Positions 42,901 through 51,260 of a stretch of 56,217 nucleotides of DNA are shown here, in pieces; the first letter of the stretch is position 1; each line of letters starts with the position of its first letter. A model generated the notes under the pieces. The model searched no databases, was not told the origin of the DNA, and was given only the letters and a program-made list of their open reading frames with translations. The DNA lies in contig METB01000001.1 in NCBI GenBank assembly GCA_001771185.1, positions 252,631-308,847 on the forward strand. The letters run 5' to 3'. The DNA is from a candidate division Kazan bacterium RIFCSPHIGHO2_01_FULL_44_14. GTDB lineage: Bacteria > Patescibacteriota > Kazan-3B-28. The translations under genes and the position numbers were made by a program.

Positions 42901-44584
42901 CGAGCTTGAGCTTGGTGATTTTAACACCTTCAGTTGAAGCCGAAGAGAACTTAAACTTCGCCACTTCAATTTGCTCGTCACCAATGATGTATGCCTGAGC
43001 CGTAAGAGTAGTCGCATCTTCGGCGACAGTAATGGTACCCTGAATAATCGTAAAAGTACCAGCGGCAGACAAAGTCGAGAAAGCAGTACCAGTGGTAGTT
43101 GAGGTGATGGTCACGACTCCGTTTGAATTTTGACCATAGGCCACCACACTAGTGGTTTCTTCAACTTGCCAGATGATTGTGCGCTGTGAAGTGATACCAG
43201 ATGCGACATCGGCAGCGACATAGACAACCTTGTTCTGACCAGCAGCCACGCTAAATAGTGGGCTGCCAGTGAAGGTCACTTTACCACCGCTTAGGGAAGC
43301 AACTGTCGAACCGATTTGAACACCGTTAACCTTTAACTTCATGTTCTTAACATCAGAATCAACTGACGTACCAACTTCGGTCAAAGTAAGAGAGTTAACA
43401 TCGAATCCTTCAGTGGCACTAGTTGCAAACTTGAAGGAACCCAAGTCCTGATCGGTGGTCCCAGAGACAACGTTGGCAGAAGCTGGGCTGGTAGGCGCAG
43501 TTACGGCCAAGTATCCCACAGATACTCCACCAACAGTAACATTATTTCCTGTTGCCGGGAAAGTTCCAGCCACTGTTCCGCCACCCGAGAGGACAACGTC
43601 AGAAGCTGAATCGATTCCCATGGTAACAATCTTTCCAACATCGGCAGTACTTGGGATAGTAATTTTTACAGTTAAGATCTTGGTAGTTCCCGCAGGAATT
43701 AGCCAAGATAAACCTGTAAATGTAGCTTTATGAGTGGTGGTGTTCAAACCTTGGGTTGAACCAAGTTTCGTATCACCGTCATAAATTTTAATGTCTGATG
43801 CATCGTCGTCAGCCGATAAACCGTCGCGACGAATAGCAATACTAGAAACTAATGCATTGTCACTAGCACTGGCTGCAAAGTTAATCTTTGTGACAACAAC
43901 ATCAGTAGCCAAAACGGCTACATTTAAAGCAGCTGGTGTTGTACCAGCAATACCGACATTCAGATTGCCGCCACCAGTCACGGTGCCGCCAATCAAGAAT
44001 CGCCAGAAGATGTCGCCAGAAGCGATGGCTTTGCCACCGGCAGTTACCTGCTGGGCCCAGCCGTCGAATTCACGGACAACTTCGGTGTAAAGATCGTAGG
44101 TGCCATTGGTGGCAGTGCTCTTAATCTTTACTGTCCAAGTCAAGGTCAAATCTTGACCTGGGTTGACTGCTGCACCGTCATAGTAGGTAAACCGATTACC
44201 ATTGATGGTGAAGCTTGATGCATCAAGCCAAGCCGGAACATTGTCCCGGGGATGCGAGGTACCGACACCCACCGCGTGAGCGTTGGGATAGGAAGGACCC
44301 TCGCTAAGCAGAGCACTCTTACCATACATGGTAAGGGCTTGTGAACTGGTAGACCGGTTACGAATGGTCAAGGACATACTCACGGTGTCGCCAGGATTGG
44401 TGGCAATTTCATGAGCTTTGCCATCGGCCGAAATCGTACCGCTCTGCGCAATCCACTGGTACTTGAAAGTACCGAGATTCTCAAAAGCCAGCGCTTGAGG
44501 CGCGGCGAAAGCCACAGCCATTGATGTTGCCATCAACCAGGCGAGGGCCTTTGAGGTGTTGCGTAAAACTGTATTATTCATCAA
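39959..44584 (-). CDS. S-layer-like / major surface protein (1541 aa) with an N-terminal NBR1-type Ig-like domain and tandem beta-rich repeats
   Basis: Signal peptide; Thr/Ser/Ala/Gly-rich; repeated module (TP.A.NV..G..D.....F.F.A...E...V.SL.....G....D..NVKLY.G.TQ.G). Confidence 0.8.
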   Translation of the reverse strand: MMNNTVLRNTSKALAWLMATSMAVAFAAPQALAFENLGTFKYQWIAQSGTISADGKAHEIATNPGDTVSMSLTIRNRSTSSQALTMYGKSALLSEGPSYPNAHAVGVGTSHPRDNVPAWLDASSFTINGNRFTYYDGAAVNPGQDLTLTWTVKIKSTATNGTYDLYTEVVREFDGWAQQVTAGGKAIASGDIFWRFLIGGTVTGGGNLNVGIAGTTPAALNVAVLATDVVVTKINFAASASDNALVSSIAIRRDGLSADDDASDIKIYDGDTKLGSTQGLNTTTHKATFTGLSWLIPAGTTKILTVKITIPSTADVGKIVTMGIDSASDVVLSGGGTVAGTFPATGNNVTVGGVSVGYLAVTAPTSPASANVVSGTTDQDLGSFKFATSATEGFDVNSLTLTEVGTSVDSDVKNMKLKVNGVQIGSTVASLSGGKVTFTGSPLFSVAAGQNKVVYVAADVASGITSQRTIIWQVEETTSVVAYGQNSNGVVTITSTTTGTAFSTLSAAGTFTIIQGTITVAEDATTLTAQAYIIGDEQIEVAKFKFSSASTEGVKITKLKLEENGDAVSTDYQNVRIYVGDSATPISTAGSVSGTTTTFEEGNGLFTIPASGNTIITIKLDISSSAAAIDTLQFGVGNANDDYSYVTGYGSTSGEKIPQDTSHITLTTCADTDAAIHTIAANGTLVISVGPNTPAAANVAKGVTNYEFTQFRAQATSEAMRVTAVASRFFVGAGTGTASATGDVNNVKLLVWNGTAWTQLGSTVSNPTTGVASFSFDYTVPKNTTSTFKVVGDIPTGTAAASLHANIIDYGIADDITSTGVSSAADITETGSAIGLLHTVVAPIITVNASTVPGDSTLIVNGDNELLGKFFLSANDVEDIKVSTLKIYTDIDGTMDGASAADLLTNTVYLRFNDGGTWRATNPDNWATGSPDFIIFAGSDFKEPNEWIIPAGGSLVVEIRGDVIAAGTAYVGMTTTAANTVGAGLSSGTSATIYDYQASPNQAYNQIWKSGAMTLSAGGTITITAATNKPAVQQVTSTWNVSAPVTPTFFKIKLEGTSEDIIVDAIRAKLFDGNQGAAATDDNFAGTVYVWEGGTIVNNVLTGGVQVGSGSLIPVTSDDAAADIVFTTPITIPKDGVKYLTLTAEMNSDTNGADSADTPYIGLDYNVQTGLWDSNYADDYNVRATGVSSNAKLYSEGTIAAVLKGNATFVVKAKLGMEMNSGSPSGLATRHPGHPIFIVNMTNTSGGTDARFRAASANAVSAITSWATTGDAYLAAVETNTTYDIDGTSLKFTASGTSAVDDGFYYDDALANDLSAYERVSFWLYSSAAVAAGDLEFVISSETADMISTGSPEFDEDIPAIAIGSWQRMDFALSGLTSDSRYYGVVVKANPDDSAGIYIDNIQFYDDMLNIDLSSDGGLFNTTGASTNPAVTFKDSSGTTVATGYVSGTGTAGLSTSTAKITMIPNTEWAIPAGGDVLTVLVDTTVLMNAASEDLTMTVDLGSSNSDGDITAGDVMWNDNEYASSIDWVDSPTPLSRGLNF

Positions 44585-44622
44585 ATTATAGTTTTCTATT
44601 AGTTCTATGGTTATTTGTTTTT

Positions 44623-45681
44623 CTAATTGGAAATTTGCTCAAACGATTGATTTTGATCGCCTTCGACCCGAGGCAAATTGTTATCATTCTTACCGGGTGT
44701 TTCCCCAATAAGCGGACTATTAATAATATTGGTATCCCAAATTACTTGGCCACCAATCAGAAGTTTTGAAAGTTGGATAGTGTCACCTTCTAAGACCCCA
44801 AAGACAGTCGCGTTAGTGCTACCCATATATGGAATCAAATTCACGGCACTACCGACTAAGAAATAACGGGTGCTACCTATCATCAGAGTTGGCTTGGCAG
44901 TGTAAGTGCCAATATTGCCGACTAACATAACACTGCCATCAGTGACGACCTTCGGAGTGGCTGGAGTAGTGTCCCCCGTTGCTGGAGTGGCTGACACGGC
45001 AGGAATTAATTTTTCCAAATCGTCACGCATGGCTAAAATACTTTGACGAACATCATCTTTGCCAATATTGCCATCGATAATGGTTTTCAAAACCCCGCGT
45101 TGAGCGTCAACAAATGATTTTAATTTATTTACCAAATCAGCGGAGGTAGTGGCGTCACCACTGCTATTCTGAAGGGCTGTAACAGCGCTTCTAGCGTTCT
45201 CAAGTGCCAATTGCGACTCTCTGACTACATCGCTTAGTTGTGCCTGGTCAGAAGAGCCCAGGGCCTTCAACCGATCATCGGCAATTGCTAACCGCAAAGT
45301 TGCCCGACGAGCGGGATCAGTAGTTAGTGCAATTTCAACATTTTCAAAGGCCTTGCGGACACCGAACAATGGTTGGCCGGGCTGGGCATCATTGGCAATT
45401 GCGCCGGTCGTAAAAGTAGCCACGAAGACGGTTGCTAGAAGTCCGACTGTGGCCGGCAGACCCAGCATGATCTTCTGGGGCCGGAAGATGTTGGCTAGTT
45501 TGTTAACTGGCATAACCAAATCAGCCGTTTCTACCTTGGTCTGCATGGCGTCAATCAGGTCCAACTGTCCGATTTGCTTAAATAACCGGTCACGAATTTT
45601 CTGCCGTTGAGACAACGACAAATGAGCGTCTTTACCTAAGACGCCAAGTTCTTGTACTAAATTGTCGTGAATGCGAGGCAT
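44623..45681 (-). CDS. DUF5667-domain membrane protein (putative anti-sigma), copy A
   Basis: TM, then AQPGQPLFGVRKAFENVEIALT...LRLAIADDRL. Confidence 0.75.
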   Translation of the reverse strand: MPRIHDNLVQELGVLGKDAHLSLSQRQKIRDRLFKQIGQLDLIDAMQTKVETADLVMPVNKLANIFRPQKIMLGLPATVGLLATVFVATFTTGAIANDAQPGQPLFGVRKAFENVEIALTTDPARRATLRLAIADDRLKALGSSDQAQLSDVVRESQLALENARSAVTALQNSSGDATTSADLVNKLKSFVDAQRGVLKTIIDGNIGKDDVRQSILAMRDDLEKLIPAVSATPATGDTTPATPKVVTDGSVMLVGNIGTYTAKPTLMIGSTRYFLVGSAVNLIPYMGSTNATVFGVLEGDTIQLSKLLIGGQVIWDTNIINSPLIGETPGKNDNNLPRVEGDQNQSFEQISN

Positions 45682-45890
45682 AGTTGTGAGTTACGAGTAT
45701 CGAGTCGCGAGTTATTAGTATTGAGTCGCGAGTATCGAGTTGTGAGGAGAGATGAGTCGCGAGTGTGAGAGAAGAAAAGAGTTATTAGTTATAAAAAATT
45801 CCGCAAATACTTTTAAGAAAATAGAGATGTTCCCCATTTTCCCAAAAGTTCTTGCGGAACCCTTAGAAAGCGAGTGACGAGTTACGAGTC
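45682..45890 (-). repeat. Heptad repeat 3' arms (ACTCGxx) between the four-helix-bundle gene and the DUF5667 start
   Basis: Plus-strand runs of gagt-nnn at 45682-45768 and 45870-45890. Confidence 0.85.
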
Positions 45891-45907
45891 GCTCGTTGCG
45901 AGAGTCG

Positions 45908-46294
45908 TTAATCGTTCACTGTAATCTGGTTTGAAATGTTGTTTTTTTGACTTTTAATGAGACCAGCCAACATCCGATTAATTTCTTCCGATTGCCGTAT
46001 AATATCTGTTACCTGTTCTGATGTGAGGTACTGGAGGTCGGATGCAATATGTGTTTGGGTCTCTAGCTCGGCTAAAGATCCCCTTGCAATTCTAATGAAT
46101 CGAATAAAATCTTTTGCCGATGAGCGACCACACCCTTCAGCGATATTGGAAGCTATTGAAACAGCACTGCGTCGAATTTGCGACTGAAGACCAAACCGTT
46201 CATCGATAGGAAAGTGCTGGGTATGCCTGTAAATCGACGTCGCCAGAATACGAGCTTTTTGCCAAACAGACAGTTGTGCGTATCCCCCATTCAT
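45908..46294 (-). CDS. Four-helix-bundle protein (23S rRNA IVP-like, TIGR02436-type)
   Basis: YAQLSVWQKA...FPIDERFGLQSQIRRSAVSIASNIAEG...FIRIARGSLAELETQ; start is ATG 46294 or GTG 46330 inside the repeat arm. Confidence 0.92.
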   Translation of the reverse strand: MNGGYAQLSVWQKARILATSIYRHTQHFPIDERFGLQSQIRRSAVSIASNIAEGCGRSSAKDFIRFIRIARGSLAELETQTHIASDLQYLTSEQVTDIIRQSEEINRMLAGLIKSQKNNISNQITVND

Positions 46295-46316
46295 GTAATT
46301 GCTCGTTACTCGCGAC

Positions 46317-46877
46317 TCACGACTCGTCACTTAACATGTCTCTTAACTTTGCCAGAGCCCGTACCGTGATAGCCCGCACATTTGCTTCTTTTTTCTTGAT
46401 GGCTTGCGCCACCCGAGCAATTGGCAGTTCTTCAACAAACCGTAATCGCAAGACCTTTTGATATTCTTCCGGTAACCGCTGTAAGGCGTTTTCCAGAACC
46501 GAGGCCTCGTGGTAGGGCTCATCCCCTTCAAGATCAGCAATTTCTGGCAGATTCTCGAAAGAAATTTCTCCCCGACGATTAATTCGGTAGTAATCGATGA
46601 CCGAATTGCGCGCGACAGTGTAAAGCCAAGTTGAAAACTTAGCATCCGCTTGCGGTTTGTATTGATGGATTTTCTGCCAGACCTTGAGGAAGACCTCCGA
46701 GGTAAGATCCTCGGCTACCGGGACACTTCTGACTTTGAGATGGACGAATCGGTAAACCTTGCCGGCCCAAATCTCGTAGAGTTCGCCGAAGGCCTGCTCA
46801 TCGCCCCCTTGGGAGCGTTGAATCAGGTCGGTTTCTCGCTGTTTGGCATAATCCGCTTTAAGCTGCAAAATGGCCAT
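46317..46877 (-). CDS. ECF RNA polymerase sigma factor, copy A
   Basis: AFGELYE, AEDLTSEVFLKVW, FSTWLYTVARNSVIDYYR, LQRLPEEYQKVLRLRF. Confidence 0.95.
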   Translation of the reverse strand: MAILQLKADYAKQRETDLIQRSQGGDEQAFGELYEIWAGKVYRFVHLKVRSVPVAEDLTSEVFLKVWQKIHQYKPQADAKFSTWLYTVARNSVIDYYRINRRGEISFENLPEIADLEGDEPYHEASVLENALQRLPEEYQKVLRLRFVEELPIARVAQAIKKKEANVRAITVRALAKLRDMLSDES

Positions 46878-46894
46878 ACGGCTCTTCCCTATTT

Positions 46895-46923
46895 ATAACG
46901 AAAATCTCCCTGTCTGTGTGACA
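46895..46923 (-). promoter_or_regulatory. Putative ECF-type autoregulatory promoter
   Basis: Minus strand TGTCAC - 17 nt - CGTTAT, ~18 nt before the sigma start; ECF promoters typically have a CGT -10 core (inference). Confidence 0.4.
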
Positions 46924-47057
46924 GGTGGAGGCAATAATACAGTCCAGGAGCGGACAATGCATAGTTAACTTATTTGACAAGAAACTATAAATTAAGACCC
47001 TGGTTAACGAGAGAAATTATACCTATATACCCCTGAAAAAGCAAGGGGTGGGATAAG

Positions 47058-47540
47058 TAGTGAGTTACGAGTATCGAGTCGCGAGTGGAGGAATGTCAGA
47101 GAGAGTCACGAGTATCGGGAAACTGCTCGCAATGACAAGATAAGGGGGAAACAAGGGAGTTGGTGAATAGTGAGTTACGAGTATCGAGTCGCGAGTGGAA
47201 GAATGTCGGAGAGAGTTACGAGTAGGTTTGCTTTCATCCTAGTAAGTCCATCGTCATTCCGGACTTACCTGCCCGTTCCGAAGCCACAGGCATAGGCGGG
47301 ACCCGGAATCCAGAAAGAAAAATAAAAGATTTTCTGTTTAGGTCTGGATTCCCGTCTTCCTGCCCGAATCGCTACGCCCGCCAGAAACGTTGTATCTACT
47401 ACGGGCTGGCGAATCGTTGCGGGCGGGCGCGGGAATGACAGGGGGGCGGGAATGACAGGAAAAGCGACCTAGACGGAAACAACCGACAAGAGTGCTTGTC
47501 GGTTGTTCAATACTCATTTCTCACTACTCAATACTTCCTC
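47058..47540. repeat. Composite repeat region (heptad arms, 57-bp direct repeat, nested GTCAT and GCCCG REPs)
   Basis: Direct repeat 47058-47114 / 47168-47224 (3 mismatches); gtcattccggac...ccggaatcc; ggattcccg...gggaatgac. Confidence 0.85.
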
Positions 47541-48509
47541 TTACATCAGATGCGGTGGCCAGTTTGGTTCGACTTCTGGCACGACTGGTTTGGACGAGTC
47601 CTTGGAAATCACCTGGTCGAAATAGTCCTGAATCGCCTGTCCCACCAAAGCAATTTGCTGTTTGATTTCGGCTACCTGATTAAGATTCTGTTGAACATCT
47701 TCGTCGGTTCCCAGCGAATCGTCCGGGACAGGCAACTTGGCATCTTCAGTGGCATCTATTTCATCTTCGGTCTCACCCAACTTTTTCAGAGTTTCCCGAC
47801 GAAGTTCATTCATTTCTTGAACTGATTCTTTCCGCCATTCCCGTAACCGAGCCCGAAGCGGAATTTGGTTCATGACACTCCCCTCAATCTCATTCATCCG
47901 CTCTTCGCGCTTATCCATCACCTCACCCAGATGTTCAATGATATTTTGAAAAACCTCTTTTTGAGCGTCGGTCGTAGCACCAGCCAATTTCTCTTCAAAT
48001 TTGGTCTGGACGGTGTTAACCCGTTCGATGCTTTGGGCTACTCGCTCAACTGCATTTTGTTTGCGTTGTTCGAATCTGGCCTTCATTTCATCTGACCATT
48101 GGCTTGGGTCAATCGTCTGCATGGCTTTGAGTTCAGCCAATCGTTCCTCACTAAACTTAGCCAATAAACCGGCCTTGGATTCTGGGGTCCGAGTAATTTT
48201 TTCCTGAATTCGCTCCACCCATTGATCAATGGGGTAAAGCGTGTCACCCGGCTTGGCTGTATTAGCCCAAGCGGCAGTTCCACCACCTAGGGCAATGATG
48301 GTGGCAATAATTAATGGGATAAGTGGCATAGCAAATCTCCTTTGGTTAAATGTATTACTTGCCTGACGAGTACCAGTCCGCTCTGGAAGCATATTTATTA
48401 CACTCATCAGGTTATTTTTGATTTCCGACTTATCTGAAGAGGATAACTGAACCCGACTCCCTGCTTGGCGGATTAGTTCTTCTAGCTGTTTGTCGGTGTG
48501 GTTAGACAT
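47541..48509 (-). CDS. DUF5667-domain membrane protein (putative anti-sigma), copy B
   Basis: TM, then AKPGDTLYPIDQWVERIQ...AKFSEERLAEL. Confidence 0.8.
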   Translation of the reverse strand: MSNHTDKQLEELIRQAGSRVQLSSSDKSEIKNNLMSVINMLPERTGTRQASNTFNQRRFAMPLIPLIIATIIALGGGTAAWANTAKPGDTLYPIDQWVERIQEKITRTPESKAGLLAKFSEERLAELKAMQTIDPSQWSDEMKARFEQRKQNAVERVAQSIERVNTVQTKFEEKLAGATTDAQKEVFQNIIEHLGEVMDKREERMNEIEGSVMNQIPLRARLREWRKESVQEMNELRRETLKKLGETEDEIDATEDAKLPVPDDSLGTDEDVQQNLNQVAEIKQQIALVGQAIQDYFDQVISKDSSKPVVPEVEPNWPPHLM

Positions 48510-48842
48510 AGGGGCCAGTTAATAGTTAAAAGTGAATGGTGAATAGTTATAGAAAGGATTGGAGATGGGGGTCAGTTAAAGGTGAATGGTCCTCCTCCGT
48601 TCTGCTGTCCGCCAGCTGGCGGAAGCAGAACTACGGAAGGATCTGCGATGAATAGTTGGGTAAAAAGAGTTCGTCATGCTGAATTTAGTTCAGCATCCCT
48701 GCCTACCGGCAGGCAGGTAGATCCTGAAACAAGTTCAGGATGACGAGCGGGGAGAGATCCTTCGGCTCCGCTCAGGATGACAAGGGATGGGCTTGGGATG
48801 ACAGATATAGGTGGGCAAAAACGATAGACACATCTGTCATTT
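48510..48842. repeat. Composite repeat region between sigma B and DUF5667 B
   Basis: gttaata/gtgaatg heptads; CCTCCT-hairpin-CTACGGAAGG element (48591-48652); cctgcctaccggcaggcagg (48698-48717) nested in a GTCAT REP. Confidence 0.85.
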
Positions 48843-49379
48843 TTAATTTTTAATTTGTAATTGCTGTTTTAGCTTATCTAATCCCCTTTTAACGATAACT
48901 CGAAGGTGATTTTCGGTTTTGCCGGTAATTTGAGCGATTTCAGAATAATCTAGTTCTTCGACAAATTTCAGCTTGAGAACGGTCTGATAAAGTTCGGGGA
49001 GTTGATCGATATTATCGATTACTCGAGTCACCTCATCATTCGTTTCCACCTCTGCCTCTACATCCGTGCCACCAGAGCGATTTATTACAGCGTCTAAGGA
49101 GACGGTCGGGCGATGGCGCCGGTAGTGGTCAATCAGGTTATATCTGGCAATCGCAAATATCCAGGTCTTGAATGGTCGATTGGGGTCATACCGATGCAAA
49201 CTTTGCCAGGCCTCCAACCAGACCTGACTTAAAATATCCTTAGCCGAGTCGTTATCGCGTAACCGAAAGGCCAAAAACCGATAGATGCTATCTGATAATT
49301 CATCAAATAATTGACCGAATGCACCGCTATCGCCTTCTTTGGCCGCCAAAGCTAATTGATTAATTTCTTGATTTGTCAT
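48843..49379 (-). CDS. ECF RNA polymerase sigma factor, copy B
   Basis: AFGQLFD, FKTWIFAIARYNLIDHYR, LPELYQTVLKLKF; the likely start is ATG 49379 (the track extension reads through repeats). Confidence 0.93.
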   Translation of the reverse strand: MTNQEINQLALAAKEGDSGAFGQLFDELSDSIYRFLAFRLRDNDSAKDILSQVWLEAWQSLHRYDPNRPFKTWIFAIARYNLIDHYRRHRPTVSLDAVINRSGGTDVEAEVETNDEVTRVIDNIDQLPELYQTVLKLKFVEELDYSEIAQITGKTENHLRVIVKRGLDKLKQQLQIKN

Positions 49380-49399
49380 CCCGTTAAAAATAAGAGTTT

Positions 49400-49637
49400 T
49401 GATGAGTAACGAGTATTGAGTTGCGAGTAGCGAGTGTATTGAGTCGAAGGACCATCTGTCATCCTGGTAATTCTGCCGTACGGCAGAAGCATCCAGAATC
49501 TTATATACGATTCTGGGCACCTGCCCGAAGATGCTACATCATTGCAGGCGGGAGCCAGAATGACGACGGATATGGTGGGTTAAGCCAGAACACGACTCCG
49601 TTTTAATTGGTTAGATTGGTGAGATTGAATAGATTGG
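49400..49637. repeat. Composite repeat region between mnmA and sigma B
   Basis: Heptad arm at 49400-49443; GTCAT REP at ~49460-49502, a near-identical inverted copy of ~15357-15399; gattggtt repeats. Confidence 0.8.
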
Positions 49638-51011
49638 TTAGATTATCTTTTTTATTATTCCCCCTCCGAGACAGACAGAACCATCATACAGTACCAGGGA
49701 TTGGCCTGGAGTCAAGGCACGAACTGGAGCATCGAAGATGAAGGAGTAGCGAGTCGCGAGTAACGAGTTGTGAGTGACGAGTTGCGAGTGATGAGTTGCG
49801 AGTGATGAGTTGCGAGAGGGAGATTGTTTCGGTGTGTTTTTTTGTCTGGATCCCGGCTCGGAGGCCGGAATGACGATAGTTTCACCGTTCGCAACTCGCG
49901 ACTCGTTACTCGCGACTTCTTCTATTACCAGCTGACCCGAATAAACTTCGGGGCCATAACGGGGCTTGGCGGTAAGTAAGTAACGAGTTACGAGTGACGA
50001 GTGACGAGTTGAATGCTTTTCACCCGCAACTCGCGACTCGCGACTCGCGACCTTCTCTATTAGGTGTAGGTTCTTCAAAACCACCCCTTGACCGTAAGTA
50101 GCAGAATCCGGACCGACCACGACCAGATTTTTCTTAATATCAGTCGATATCACATAAAGCGGGTCGGTTTGCCCTGATAAACCAGCCACCCGCCTCTGGC
50201 CGATAGTATAAAACCAGGCCCCTTCATGTTCACCAACCACTTTACCCTCTAGGTTGACAATTTTGCCTTTTTTCTGTGTAATAACGGTTTTTAAGAACTT
50301 TTTAACATCAATTGGTCCGATAAAACAAATTCCCTGACTGTCTTTTTTGGTGGCAGTCGGTAATTTAAACTGTTTAGCCAACGCCCTAACCCGCTTTTTT
50401 GGGTATTGGCCAATCGGGAATAGGGTTTTAGACAACTGGGCTTGGGTCAAATTGTAAAGAAAATAGGTCTGGTCTTTGATGGGGTCTGCTCCTTTTAGGA
50501 GCAAATGACGAGTGACGAGTGACGAGTGACGAGTAAGGGAAGAGTTAGTTTTTCCACTCGCGACTCGCGACTCATGACTCGCAACTCGTTGCGCATAATG
50601 TCCGGTGGCAATAAAGTCGGCTCCTAGAGCCATGGCTCGTTTTAAAAACAGACCAAATTTAATTTCTTTGTTGCACATCACATCTGGATTGGGCGTTCGA
50701 CCGGCTTTGTATTCAGCAAAAAAGTAATCCAGTACCTGCTTTTTGTATTCCTTTTCGAAATTAAAGGTGTAATAAGGGATATCAAGTTGCTGACAAACCG
50801 CTCGCATATCGGCAAAGTCCTGTTCGACAGAGCAATATTCTGTCCTAGTGTAGATAAGATCGCTCCAGCCCGCAGAGCTACGCTCAGCGTTGCTGGCGGG
50901 CCAGTTCTTCATAAAGACCCCAACCACTTTAAAACCCTGCTGTTTCAGCAGAGCGGCAGCCACAGAGGAGTCGACTCCCCCACTCATAGCGACAAAGACA
51001 GTTGGCGTCAT
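49638..51011 (-). CDS. mnmA: tRNA 2-thiouridylase MnmA carrying four in-frame repeat-derived insertions
   Basis: SGGVDS, PNPDVMCN, ATGHYA, KDQTYFL, KKDSQGICF, FYTIGQR and TPGQ are all intact. Confidence 0.96.
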   Translation of the reverse strand: MTPTVFVAMSGGVDSSVAAALLKQQGFKVVGVFMKNWPASNAERSSAGWSDLIYTRTEYCSVEQDFADMRAVCQQLDIPYYTFNFEKEYKKQVLDYFFAEYKAGRTPNPDVMCNKEIKFGLFLKRAMALGADFIATGHYAQRVASHESRVASGKTNSSLTRHSSLVTRHLLLKGADPIKDQTYFLYNLTQAQLSKTLFPIGQYPKKRVRALAKQFKLPTATKKDSQGICFIGPIDVKKFLKTVITQKKGKIVNLEGKVVGEHEGAWFYTIGQRRVAGLSGQTDPLYVISTDIKKNLVVVGPDSATYGQGVVLKNLHLIEKVASRESRVAGEKHSTRHSSLVTRYLLTAKPRYGPEVYSGQLVIEEVASNESRVANGETIVIPASEPGSRQKNTPKQSPSRNSSLATHHSQLVTHNSLLATRYSFIFDAPVRALTPGQSLVLYDGSVCLGGGIIKKII

Positions 51012-51260
51012 AACGAATTAAAAATTAAAAATTGATAAATTAAAAATGGAGAATGGGACTGTAAAATAGAGAAGTTAATAGTTAAAAGTGATAAGTCCTC
51101 CTCCGTCCCGGTTCGCCGGGACTACGGAAGGATCCTCGATGAAAAGTTATAGTTGTCATTCCGAGTGACACCGAGTGTAGCCGAGGGGAATCGAGGAATC
51201 TAGCTCGTCAGCTAACGGACGGCTATGCCTAGATCCTTCGACTCCGCTCAGGATGACAGG
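51012..51260. repeat. Composite repeat region upstream of mnmA
   Basis: aaattaa heptads; 83-bp segment 51121-51203 matches 53447-53529 (3 mismatches). Confidence 0.8.

Follow-up and report, generated by a model that had tools for sequence, protein, structure and literature searches.

A PF05635 four-helix-bundle gene between inverted heptad arrays in a Kazan bacterium: a candidate cassette of the rRNA intervening-sequence type

The window analyzed here is a stretch of 56,217 nucleotides from the genome of the candidate division Kazan bacterium RIFCSPHIGHO2_01_FULL_44_14 (Patescibacteriota, contig METB01000001.1). Between a gene for an extracytoplasmic function (ECF)-type sigma factor, sigma A, and the gene of its presumed anti-sigma partner, DUF5667 A, it contains a small gene for a four-helix-bundle (FHB) protein, FHB1, of the Pfam family PF05635. 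This gene is bracketed by tandem seven-nucleotide units (heptads) that form complementary arms on its two sides (Table 1). What is new here is the link between heptamer arrays and an FHB gene. On the coding strand, the cassette reads (N4AGT)n upstream and (ACTN4)n downstream, with a polar core that is conserved. The evidence leaves us evenly inclined for and against the view that FHB1 and its arms are one copy of a widespread cassette of the type known from the intervening sequences (IVSs) of rRNA, i.e., a PF05635 gene flanked on both sides by arrays of about four heptads each, inverted relative to each other.

The cassette is tightly fitted to its neighbors. The sigma A stop codon (TGA, 46319-46317) falls inside the 5´ arm, so that the final codons of the gene (S-D-E-S-stop, read on the minus strand) and the stop itself are repeat-encoded, and the orthologues of sigma A in related genomes have different C-terminal ends. 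The open reading frame (ORF) of FHB1 starts 22 bases past this stop. The 5´ arm opens with AGTGACGAGT (46331-46322), and these ten bases recur in exact reverse complement in the proximal 3´ arm, as ACTCGTCACT (45882-45873). A spacer of 75 nt separates the proximal arm from the distal ACTCNNN units. The original prediction for this DNA described a 5´ arm overlapping the sigma stop codon and followed by the FHB gene, a complementary arm with a 10-bp perfect match past the FHB stop, and arms continuing to the DUF5667 start codon, all of which is borne out by the coordinates.

Arm pairing was scored by constrained hairpin folds against shuffled partners, and flank complementarity, as used below, by local alignment scores. 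The 5´ arm pairs over its full length with the proximal arm (-35.7 kcal/mol; shuffled partners -17.5 +/- 3.2; z -5.6), and it pairs with the distal arm through perfect helices of 12 and 8 bp (-43.2 kcal/mol; z -7.2). As in an IVS, the ORF of FHB1 thus lies between inverted terminal repeats that can pair into a stem. The whole region folds far better than shuffled sequence (z -5.1), and the minimum-energy fold of its 664 nt picks the distal arm as the partner of the 5´ arm. FHB1 had been placed in the loop of a heptad hairpin, and this stands insofar as the arms pair beyond chance; the assignment of the hairpin is ambiguous because the distal arm pairs better than the proximal arm. Duplex-fold energies did not separate the FHB flanks from controls. 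A search of 44500-51200 against Rfam returned no known family and only chance matches to miRNA-like hairpins, and promoter and terminator scans gave counts that were not above those of shuffled sequence.

Orthologous junctions in related genomes show the cassette to be a discrete insertion. The orthologues of sigma A and DUF5667 A are neighbors in 17 or more related genomes, none of which has an FHB gene between them. In a genome of the same genus (G001), the junction is a conserved spacer of 120 nt that comprises just a hairpin core and has neither a gene nor heptads. Compared to this, the present genome (G000) gained arm-FHB-arm between the sigma C-terminus and the core, plus an array between the core and the DUF5667 ATG. 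Empty in G001 and filled here, the junction behaves in the way that the original prediction expected of a mobile cassette. In another genus (G009 and G008), heptads of the types GAGAATA and GAATCAT, respectively, occupy both boundaries, covering the sigma stop and adjoining the DUF5667 ATG, with no FHB gene present; in G009, sigma A is extended by ...RDERIENRE* inside the GAGAATA array. A derivation of the heptad from the target site, based on GACGAGT-like codons at the end of sigma in G001, was considered and dropped, as the arms are inverted rather than direct and the motif is absent from G002.

Several genera have kept the spacer core, seven of its pairs showing compensatory changes, and 79 of 80 positions are identical between this genome and G009, though the sigma proteins are only ~69% identical. 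It may be an older terminator, attenuator or processing hairpin. Its conservation across genera implies that the sigma and DUF5667 genes were separate before the cassette arrived. The proposal that FHB splits a sigma/anti-sigma pair is therefore correct as to position, FHB lying between the two genes, but the pair was already parted by the conserved terminator-like hairpin. By these comparisons, gene and arms came in jointly, as DNA, where sigma A has its 3´ end and upstream of the older hairpin, and the last codons of sigma A were rewritten. A short ORF with the start ATGGGG overlaps the core (45794-45864). In two related loci, L007 (G002) and L009 (G007), an extra ORF of ~200 aa with a signal-peptide-like start is found between the core and DUF5667; this ORF is absent from the present genome.

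The ftsK-yajQ junction, which also carries a cassette in this genome, provides a second comparison. In 10 or more of 26 genomes, the two genes overlap (TAATG) or have 2 nt between them. FHB cassettes are present at the junction in G000, G002 and G011, with arms that differ between the three and are complementary within each. Gene-less arrays are found in G008, and G006 and G016 have a gene-less CCAAT/ATTGG hairpin with arms resembling those of G016's own FHB. In G005, G013 and G015, the junction holds unrelated inverted-repeat elements. Within one genus, the site is filled (G011), array-only (G008) or perfectly empty (G009, G010, G012), so the cassette turns over on the timescale of a genus, with joint arrival of gene and arms. 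Presence/absence polymorphism at orthologous sites is thus seen both at the sigma-DUF5667 junction (empty in G001) and at the TAATG junctions. Moreover, one clade (support 98/93) unites three FHB proteins that have CCAATCT arms and are encoded at two different sites, as expected if gene and arms travel as a unit. Cassettes thus come and go between related genomes, and they are located precisely at the boundaries of cistrons or in loops of rRNA.

The genome is complete (699,981 bp, 45.6% GC) and has five PF05635 genes, each placed between two consecutive genes, past the stop of the first and ahead of the start of the second (sigma-DUF5667, ftsK-yajQ, rplA-dut, rplI-glyS and ftsE-ftsX), and none in a helix of 23S or 16S rRNA. 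The tandem units on the two sides of each gene are complementary to one another, and each locus has its own unit (CGAGTNN, AGTKAAN, CCAATCT, AATTTYG and CTAAATC). By flank complementarity, the five genes rank 6, 9, 11, 16 and 27 (FHB1) among 655 genes, these being crude calls of the longest ORFs (P ~8e-8).

The same arrangement is found in related genomes and in other phyla. PF05635 copies range from 0 to 8 per genome among the 26 related genomes, with no match above the cut-off in 13 of these. About 23 of 25 bona fide FHB genes, from 12 related genomes, have inverted heptad arrays just past the upstream stop and just before the downstream ATG; five weak matches of Avd-like type have no heptad arms and fall in a separate clade. 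For a cross-phylum sample, 78 homologous loci were taken from species-representative genomes (Bacteroidota, Acidobacteriota, Planctomycetota, Proteobacteria, Verrucomicrobiota, Firmicutes and others). Inverted flank complementarity of at least 22 was found at 56 of the 78 loci, compared to 4 displaced controls, and a lag-7 periodicity of at least 0.8 was found in a flank of 40 loci, compared to 1 of 156 control flanks. Flank periodicity was found at none of the loci at lags 5, 6 and 9, and at five at lag 8. The arm units differ almost everywhere across phyla, and it is the polar core, AGT upstream and ACT downstream, that they have in common. Two or more AGT are found in 20 of 34 upstream arms and in 2 of 34 downstream arms, while the corresponding counts for ACT are 3 and 20 (Fisher 1e-7 for the polarity); the mean for any trimer is 3.8 of 34. 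FHB1 and FHB2 of the present genome obey this polarity.

FHB1 matches PF05635 at 139.2 bits (cut-off 33.8, E 6.9e-41) over profile positions 2-105 of 106, and the sequence of the crystal structure PDB 2gsc at E 5.7e-25. The AlphaFold2 model has four helices (pLDDT 94.9). In Foldseek, it superposes on 2gsc with template modeling (TM) scores of 0.85/0.95 and a root-mean-square deviation of 0.8-1.0, and on 2rld too; both crystals contain five chains. The Avd-like fold that was originally suggested is confirmed by TM scores of 0.75/0.89 to Avd (4dwl) at a sequence identity of 13-15%. The FHB ORFs are intact, 17 residues are invariant among 33 homologues (43-56% identical), and FHB1 has 2,911 homologues at E <= 1e-10, the nearest being 62% identical and the next coming from many phyla. 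Together with the confident model, this argues that the protein is under purifying selection. Many cassette FHB genes (L001-L005, L036-L062) start in or just past a G-rich motif (ATGGGG, GGGGGATG).

Heptads are also dispersed throughout the genome. We found 142 period-7 arrays at a TRF score of at least 34 and a further 30 of period 14, compared to 1 in a shuffled genome. After merging, ~180 arrays remain, mostly intergenic, and about a third of the spacers are filled. The length distribution has a sharp maximum at four units (77 of 179 arrays), and few arrays are longer. An inverted partner within 600 nt was found for 26-49 arrays, about a quarter (control 4-12), so that most are solo arrays rather than hairpins. 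Such abundance raises the question of coincidence, in which arrays arise from slippage in AT-rich spacers and small FHB genes merely lie in array-rich ones. The filled third of the spacers, the solo state of most arrays and the presence of arrays in a few genomes without FHB fit this explanation. However, free slippage gives no length peak at four units, the enrichment is at lag 7 alone, and the AGT/ACT core is polar. Furthermore, all five FHB genes are in the top 4% for flank complementarity, inverted flanks are found across phyla far beyond the controls, and empty sites are without both gene and arrays. Coincidence is disfavored, and we consider it very improbable.

The dispersed arrays are similar in sequence to the arms of the FHB genes in the same genome. 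Here, 82 of 172 arrays match (score at least 14) an arm of one of the five genes (8, 19, 0, 29 and 37 per gene), whereas the arms of 20 foreign FHB genes mostly have no matching arrays (Mann-Whitney U test against own arms, p 0.01). The present genome thus passes the test of FHB-flanking against dispersed heptads that the original prediction put forward. The link between FHB genes and gene-less repeats holds at the genome level as well: in ~40 kb sampled from each of 20 relatives, array density rises with PF05635 copy number (Spearman 0.50, p 0.02; 21 genomes, which are not phylogenetically independent). In one genus, FHB copies of 7, 7, 1, 0 and 0 correspond to 9.5, 3.5, 3.0, 1.9 and 0.5 arrays per 20 kb. 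In the original prediction, FHB is a candidate autonomous partner of the repeats, and the gene-less hairpins would be its derivatives or binding targets. The tracking of own FHB arms supports a link between the two, but most of the elements in question are solo arrays and not hairpins. Around FHB1, arrays with a GAGT core are clustered (13 of ~27 in 5.2 kb), and cognate ACTCNNN arrays, none of them more than 5 kb from FHB1, are found 5´ of DUF5667 A and of both sigma genes, A and B. The AAATKAC/AATTAAA type, a large array family, has no FHB partner in this genome.

One alternative is that the arrays are operators rather than relics in a regulatory network of the host. According to this, each FHB paralogue would bind single-stranded (ACUNNNN)n arrays in 5´ leaders as well as its own flanks (autoregulation), and FHB1 would tune the surrounding sigma and DUF5667 genes. 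The arrays do abut gene boundaries: between co-directional genes, 35 of 113 are within 15 nt of a start and 28 of 113 within 15 nt of a stop. ACT-type solo arrays are nearer to the downstream start (15 of 19) and AGT-type ones nearer to the upstream stop (6 of 9), which is reminiscent of the cassette layout. The cognate arrays 5´ of the two sigma genes and DUF5667 A, the length fixed at about four units and the separate array family of each paralogue also fit such a role, and forward TAACTGA repeats upstream of ORFs in Beggiatoaceae have been proposed to be translational regulators (PMC4679880). On the other hand, half of the close relatives have no FHB and keep the same genes without arrays, and FHB is therefore dispensable. 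The cassettes located within rRNA genes would be hard to understand if FHB were a regulator. Among solo arrays, the bias towards the sense orientation is weak (19 vs 9, p 0.09), and the AAATKAC/AATTAAA family is left without a partner. On balance, we find a regulatory network of this kind unlikely.

A direct parallel to the cassettes is found in rRNA. In one relative (G017, locus L045), an FHB cassette is inserted in the 16S rRNA gene, between AGAGTTTGATCCTGGCTCAG...GCAAGTCGAATGG and GAGTAACGCGTGGG, and it is a classical IVS. At the same site in the present genome, right after GCAAGTCGAATG, the 16S rRNA gene (533110-534691) has a gene-less hairpin, (AAATGAA)x4 / (ATTTGTA)x4 (G000:C1:533203-533285), that folds at -33.5 kcal/mol on the rRNA strand and at -16.1 kcal/mol on the opposite strand. 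The analogy to rRNA IVSs that was drawn at the outset is thus substantiated by both a gene-bearing and a gene-less 16S element. The Coxiella IVS is reported to carry GACAGAT heptamers, in two or three tandem copies, where RNase III cuts upstream of the S23p ORF (PMC4990558). The gene for RNase III, rnc, is present in our genome. By analogy, RNase III would cleave the transcript of a cassette in the stem formed by the arms, as has been demonstrated for rRNA IVSs. This would be harmless to the host, because cutting at cistron junctions and in rRNA loops requires no re-joining, and would suggest a reason for the position of the cassettes. The FHB oligomer, a pentamer in the crystals of relatives, would recognize the arrays of its own cassette and cognate gene-less arrays, and the latter could be relics, derivatives or targets of the cassette.

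Several observations weigh against an IVS-type cassette. At the RNA level, mismatches in the arms of 25 cassettes comprise 21 G.U and 29 A.C, i.e., no G.U excess, and among 28 intercistronic segments with multiple arrays, the sense strand folds better in 10 and the antisense strand in 18. Outside rRNA, an RNA stem is therefore not visibly under selection, and the original description of an RNA-structured cassette is not upheld for the intercistronic arms. Moreover, three heptad hairpins are kept in frame within mnmA, where they would not survive efficient cutting by RNase III. At the DNA level, each locus has arms of its own, whereas a normal transposon family has common ends: near-identical terminal repeats common to the copies in one genome are not found, the five cassettes having five different units. 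FHB has no known catalytic motif. Comparison of filled and empty junctions reveals that only stop and start codons were rebuilt, with no clear target-site duplication recognized, and ten population contigs from different samples are identical across the cassette, with no sign of recent movement. In G009, complementary arrays bracket the ancestral spacer without FHB, which insertion of a single hairpin does not explain. Finally, arrays occur without detected FHB in G006, G012 and G015 (3.0, 1.9 and 1.5 per 20 kb), although two of the assemblies are incomplete. As the evidence thus counts against a purely RNA-level element as well as against a simple transposon, we give the IVS-type cassette an even chance.

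The RNA-level data also bear on a further alternative, in which the arms or hairpin are a processing or stabilizing stem at operon junctions, and the FHB ORF is a passenger that is decaying or irrelevant. In the case of Coxiella, greater relevance has been ascribed to the RNA, with the S23p protein probably not being produced (PMC4990558). The ~180 arrays against only five FHB genes, and the folding of the whole region beyond shuffles, are consistent with a similar situation here. Nevertheless, a passenger is difficult to reconcile with intact ORFs with 17 invariant residues, with the thousands of homologues and the confident structure model, with the missing wobble signature in the arms, and with the orientation of the gene relative to the AGT/ACT polarity, which is conserved across phyla. 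We therefore regard this alternative as improbable.

Heptads also characterize the neighborhood of the cassette. The sigma B junction, which is equivalent to that of sigma A, has repeats and no FHB, as originally stated. Its two arrays are of different families and non-complementary, and the AAATTAC array supplies the end of sigma B (...LQIKN*) together with the stop. The arms were also correctly assigned to the same heptad family as the inserts in mnmA, where three in-frame inserts with the CGAGTNN unit bring MnmA (49638-51011, minus strand) to 457 aa and add peptides such as RVASRESRV...SLVTRH. Inserts 1 and 3 are common to G008, of another genus, and absent from G002, of the same genus; at the loop positions of the MnmA inserts, other relatives have other inserts. 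A second inverted-repeat family is seen in the window at 47280-47460 and 49820-49880 (...CTGGATCCCGG...CCGGAATGAC / GTCATTCC...). One copy lies in the loop of mnmA insert 3 and is translated as IVIPASEPGSRQK, and the family also fills the ftsK-yajQ junctions of G005, G013 and G015. Elsewhere in the genome, the strongest flanking inverted repeats (score 60-61) are those of two small Cas2/PaaX-like genes with the motif VIFDIPEK... (G000:C1:575656-576126 and 220870-221397).

Table 1. Features of the FHB1 locus and its surroundings (positions in the window)
Feature	Position	Strand	Remarks
ECF-type sigma factor A	46317..46877	-	Pfam Sigma70_r2 + r4
5´ arm, AGTGACGAGTCGTGAGTCGCGAGTAACGAG	46331-46302	-	Four heptads, type NNCGAGT, AGT core
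FHB1, 128 aa	ATG 46294, TAA 45910-45908	-	PF05635 / TIGR02436 (23S_rRNA_IVP)
Proximal 3´ arm, CGACTCTCGCAACGAGCGACTCGTAACTCGTCACTCGC	45907-45870	-	ACTCGNN units
Ancestral spacer core	45794..45864	-	33-bp G.U-rich hairpin, then U tract, terminator-like; from fold and conservation
Distal ACTCNNN array	45764-45685	-	ACTCGNN units; last unit 3 nt short of DUF5667 A ATG
DUF5667 A, presumed anti-sigma partner	44623..45681 (ATG 45681)	-	Pfam DUF5667; synteny with sigma A in at least 17 relatives
Two ACTCGNN arrays 5´ of sigma A	47068..47223 (47068-47113 and 47178-47223)	-	In ~110-bp direct repeat
ACTATTC-type array	48517..48549	-	Abuts DUF5667 B start (48509)
AAATTAC-type array over sigma B stop	48839..48862	-	Junction equivalent to that of sigma A, no FHB
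ACTCNNN array	49404..49435	-	5´ of likely true sigma B start
GATTGGTNA array	49606..49644	+	Just past mnmA stop; 9-nt period; cognate to FHB3 arms (FHB3 at genome 585.7 kb)
mnmA in-frame insert 3	49744..49917	-	CGAGTNN/ACTCGNN hairpin, second inverted-repeat element nested in loop
mnmA in-frame insert 2	49979..50051	-	CGAGTNN/ACTCGNN hairpin
mnmA in-frame insert 1	50506..50588	-	(GACGAGT)x4, loop, (ACTCGNN)x5

PF05635, with thousands of members and two structural-genomics crystals and no function, the IVSs of rRNA, and the excess of 7-nt tandem repeats in bacteria have long been unexplained, for decades. A genome of 700 kb ties the three together in a form that can be tested. Full-text literature searches gave us no description of PF05635 genes bracketed by heptad arrays outside rRNA. 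New from this genome are the set of five paralogues with five units, empty sites at base level, the tests of cognate arrays and copy number, the AGT/ACT polarity, and a gene-less heptad hairpin in 16S rRNA. There are consequences for annotation too, as arrays rewrite gene ends (the C-termini of the two sigma factors, A and B) and insert peptides in frame into MnmA. One tentative and wider possibility is that PF05635 oligomers read tandem heptads by the AGT/ACT core and 7-nt spacing, with about one subunit per unit. Gene and arms would then constitute a superfamily of self-recognizing mobile "hairpin cassettes" of which the rRNA IVS is only the best-known case, and a large share of the unexplained heptamer arrays in bacteria (those of the candidate phyla radiation (CPR), GGGAATC in Xanthomonas, TAACTGA in Beggiatoa and the short tandemly repeated repetitive (STRR) sequences of cyanobacteria) would be arms, relics or targets.

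Among known systems, the ORF-bearing IVSs of 23S and 16S rRNA (S23p of Coxiella burnetii, Leptospira, Salmonella; PMC4990558) are similar in having a PF05635 ORF in the loop of a stem formed by terminal inverted repeats. The tandem heptamers in the 5´ arm of the Coxiella IVS (GACAGAT, two to three copies) have their counterpart in the FHB cassettes. FHB1 differs in being located between protein-coding genes and in having arms of about four degenerate heptads; outside rRNA, the arms are without a G.U signature. Diversity-generating retroelements (DGRs) have an accessory protein, Avd, which has the same four-helix-bundle fold (PDB 4dwl) and is part of a nucleic-acid-binding ribonucleoprotein (structures 8ube/8ub7), and relatives of FHB1 likewise crystallize with five chains. 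An identification of FHB1 as a DGR Avd was rejected, since the match to the Pfam family bAvd (38.4) is below the cut-off of 40, the neighbors are sigma and DUF5667 genes, and there is no reverse transcriptase, template or variable repeat nearby.

Dispersed short repeats with a small cognate gene that is itself flanked by repeats are known from the repetitive extragenic palindromes (REPs) and their associated tyrosine transposases (RAYTs), and from bacterial MITEs (miniature transposable elements with inverted repeats), including the palindromic elements that are found in frame in Rickettsia genes. Similarities to these include gene-less derivatives, insertion at gene boundaries and the tolerance of in-frame inserts, here in mnmA. 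In contrast, FHB has no HUH/tyrosine-transposase (Y1) motif, and PF05635 is the only gene of the cassette. In addition, the repeats of the cassette are tandem heptads that vary by locus, and no target-site duplication is recognized. Intergenic heptamer arrays have been described as TAACTGA in Beggiatoaceae (PMC4679880) and as GGGAATC in Xanthomonas, with 70-75 convergent pairs, and GGGGAYT in Nostoc (PMC4692102). These studies do not mention PF05635 or IVS proteins, and their arrays are compared to ours by description only. Like the arrays of the present genome, they and the cyanobacterial STRR sequences consist of tandem 7-nt units in 2-6 copies, are intergenic, and are often found just 5´ of start codons and often as convergent pairs. 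The TAACTGA unit of Beggiatoaceae contains the ACT core in the forward orientation.

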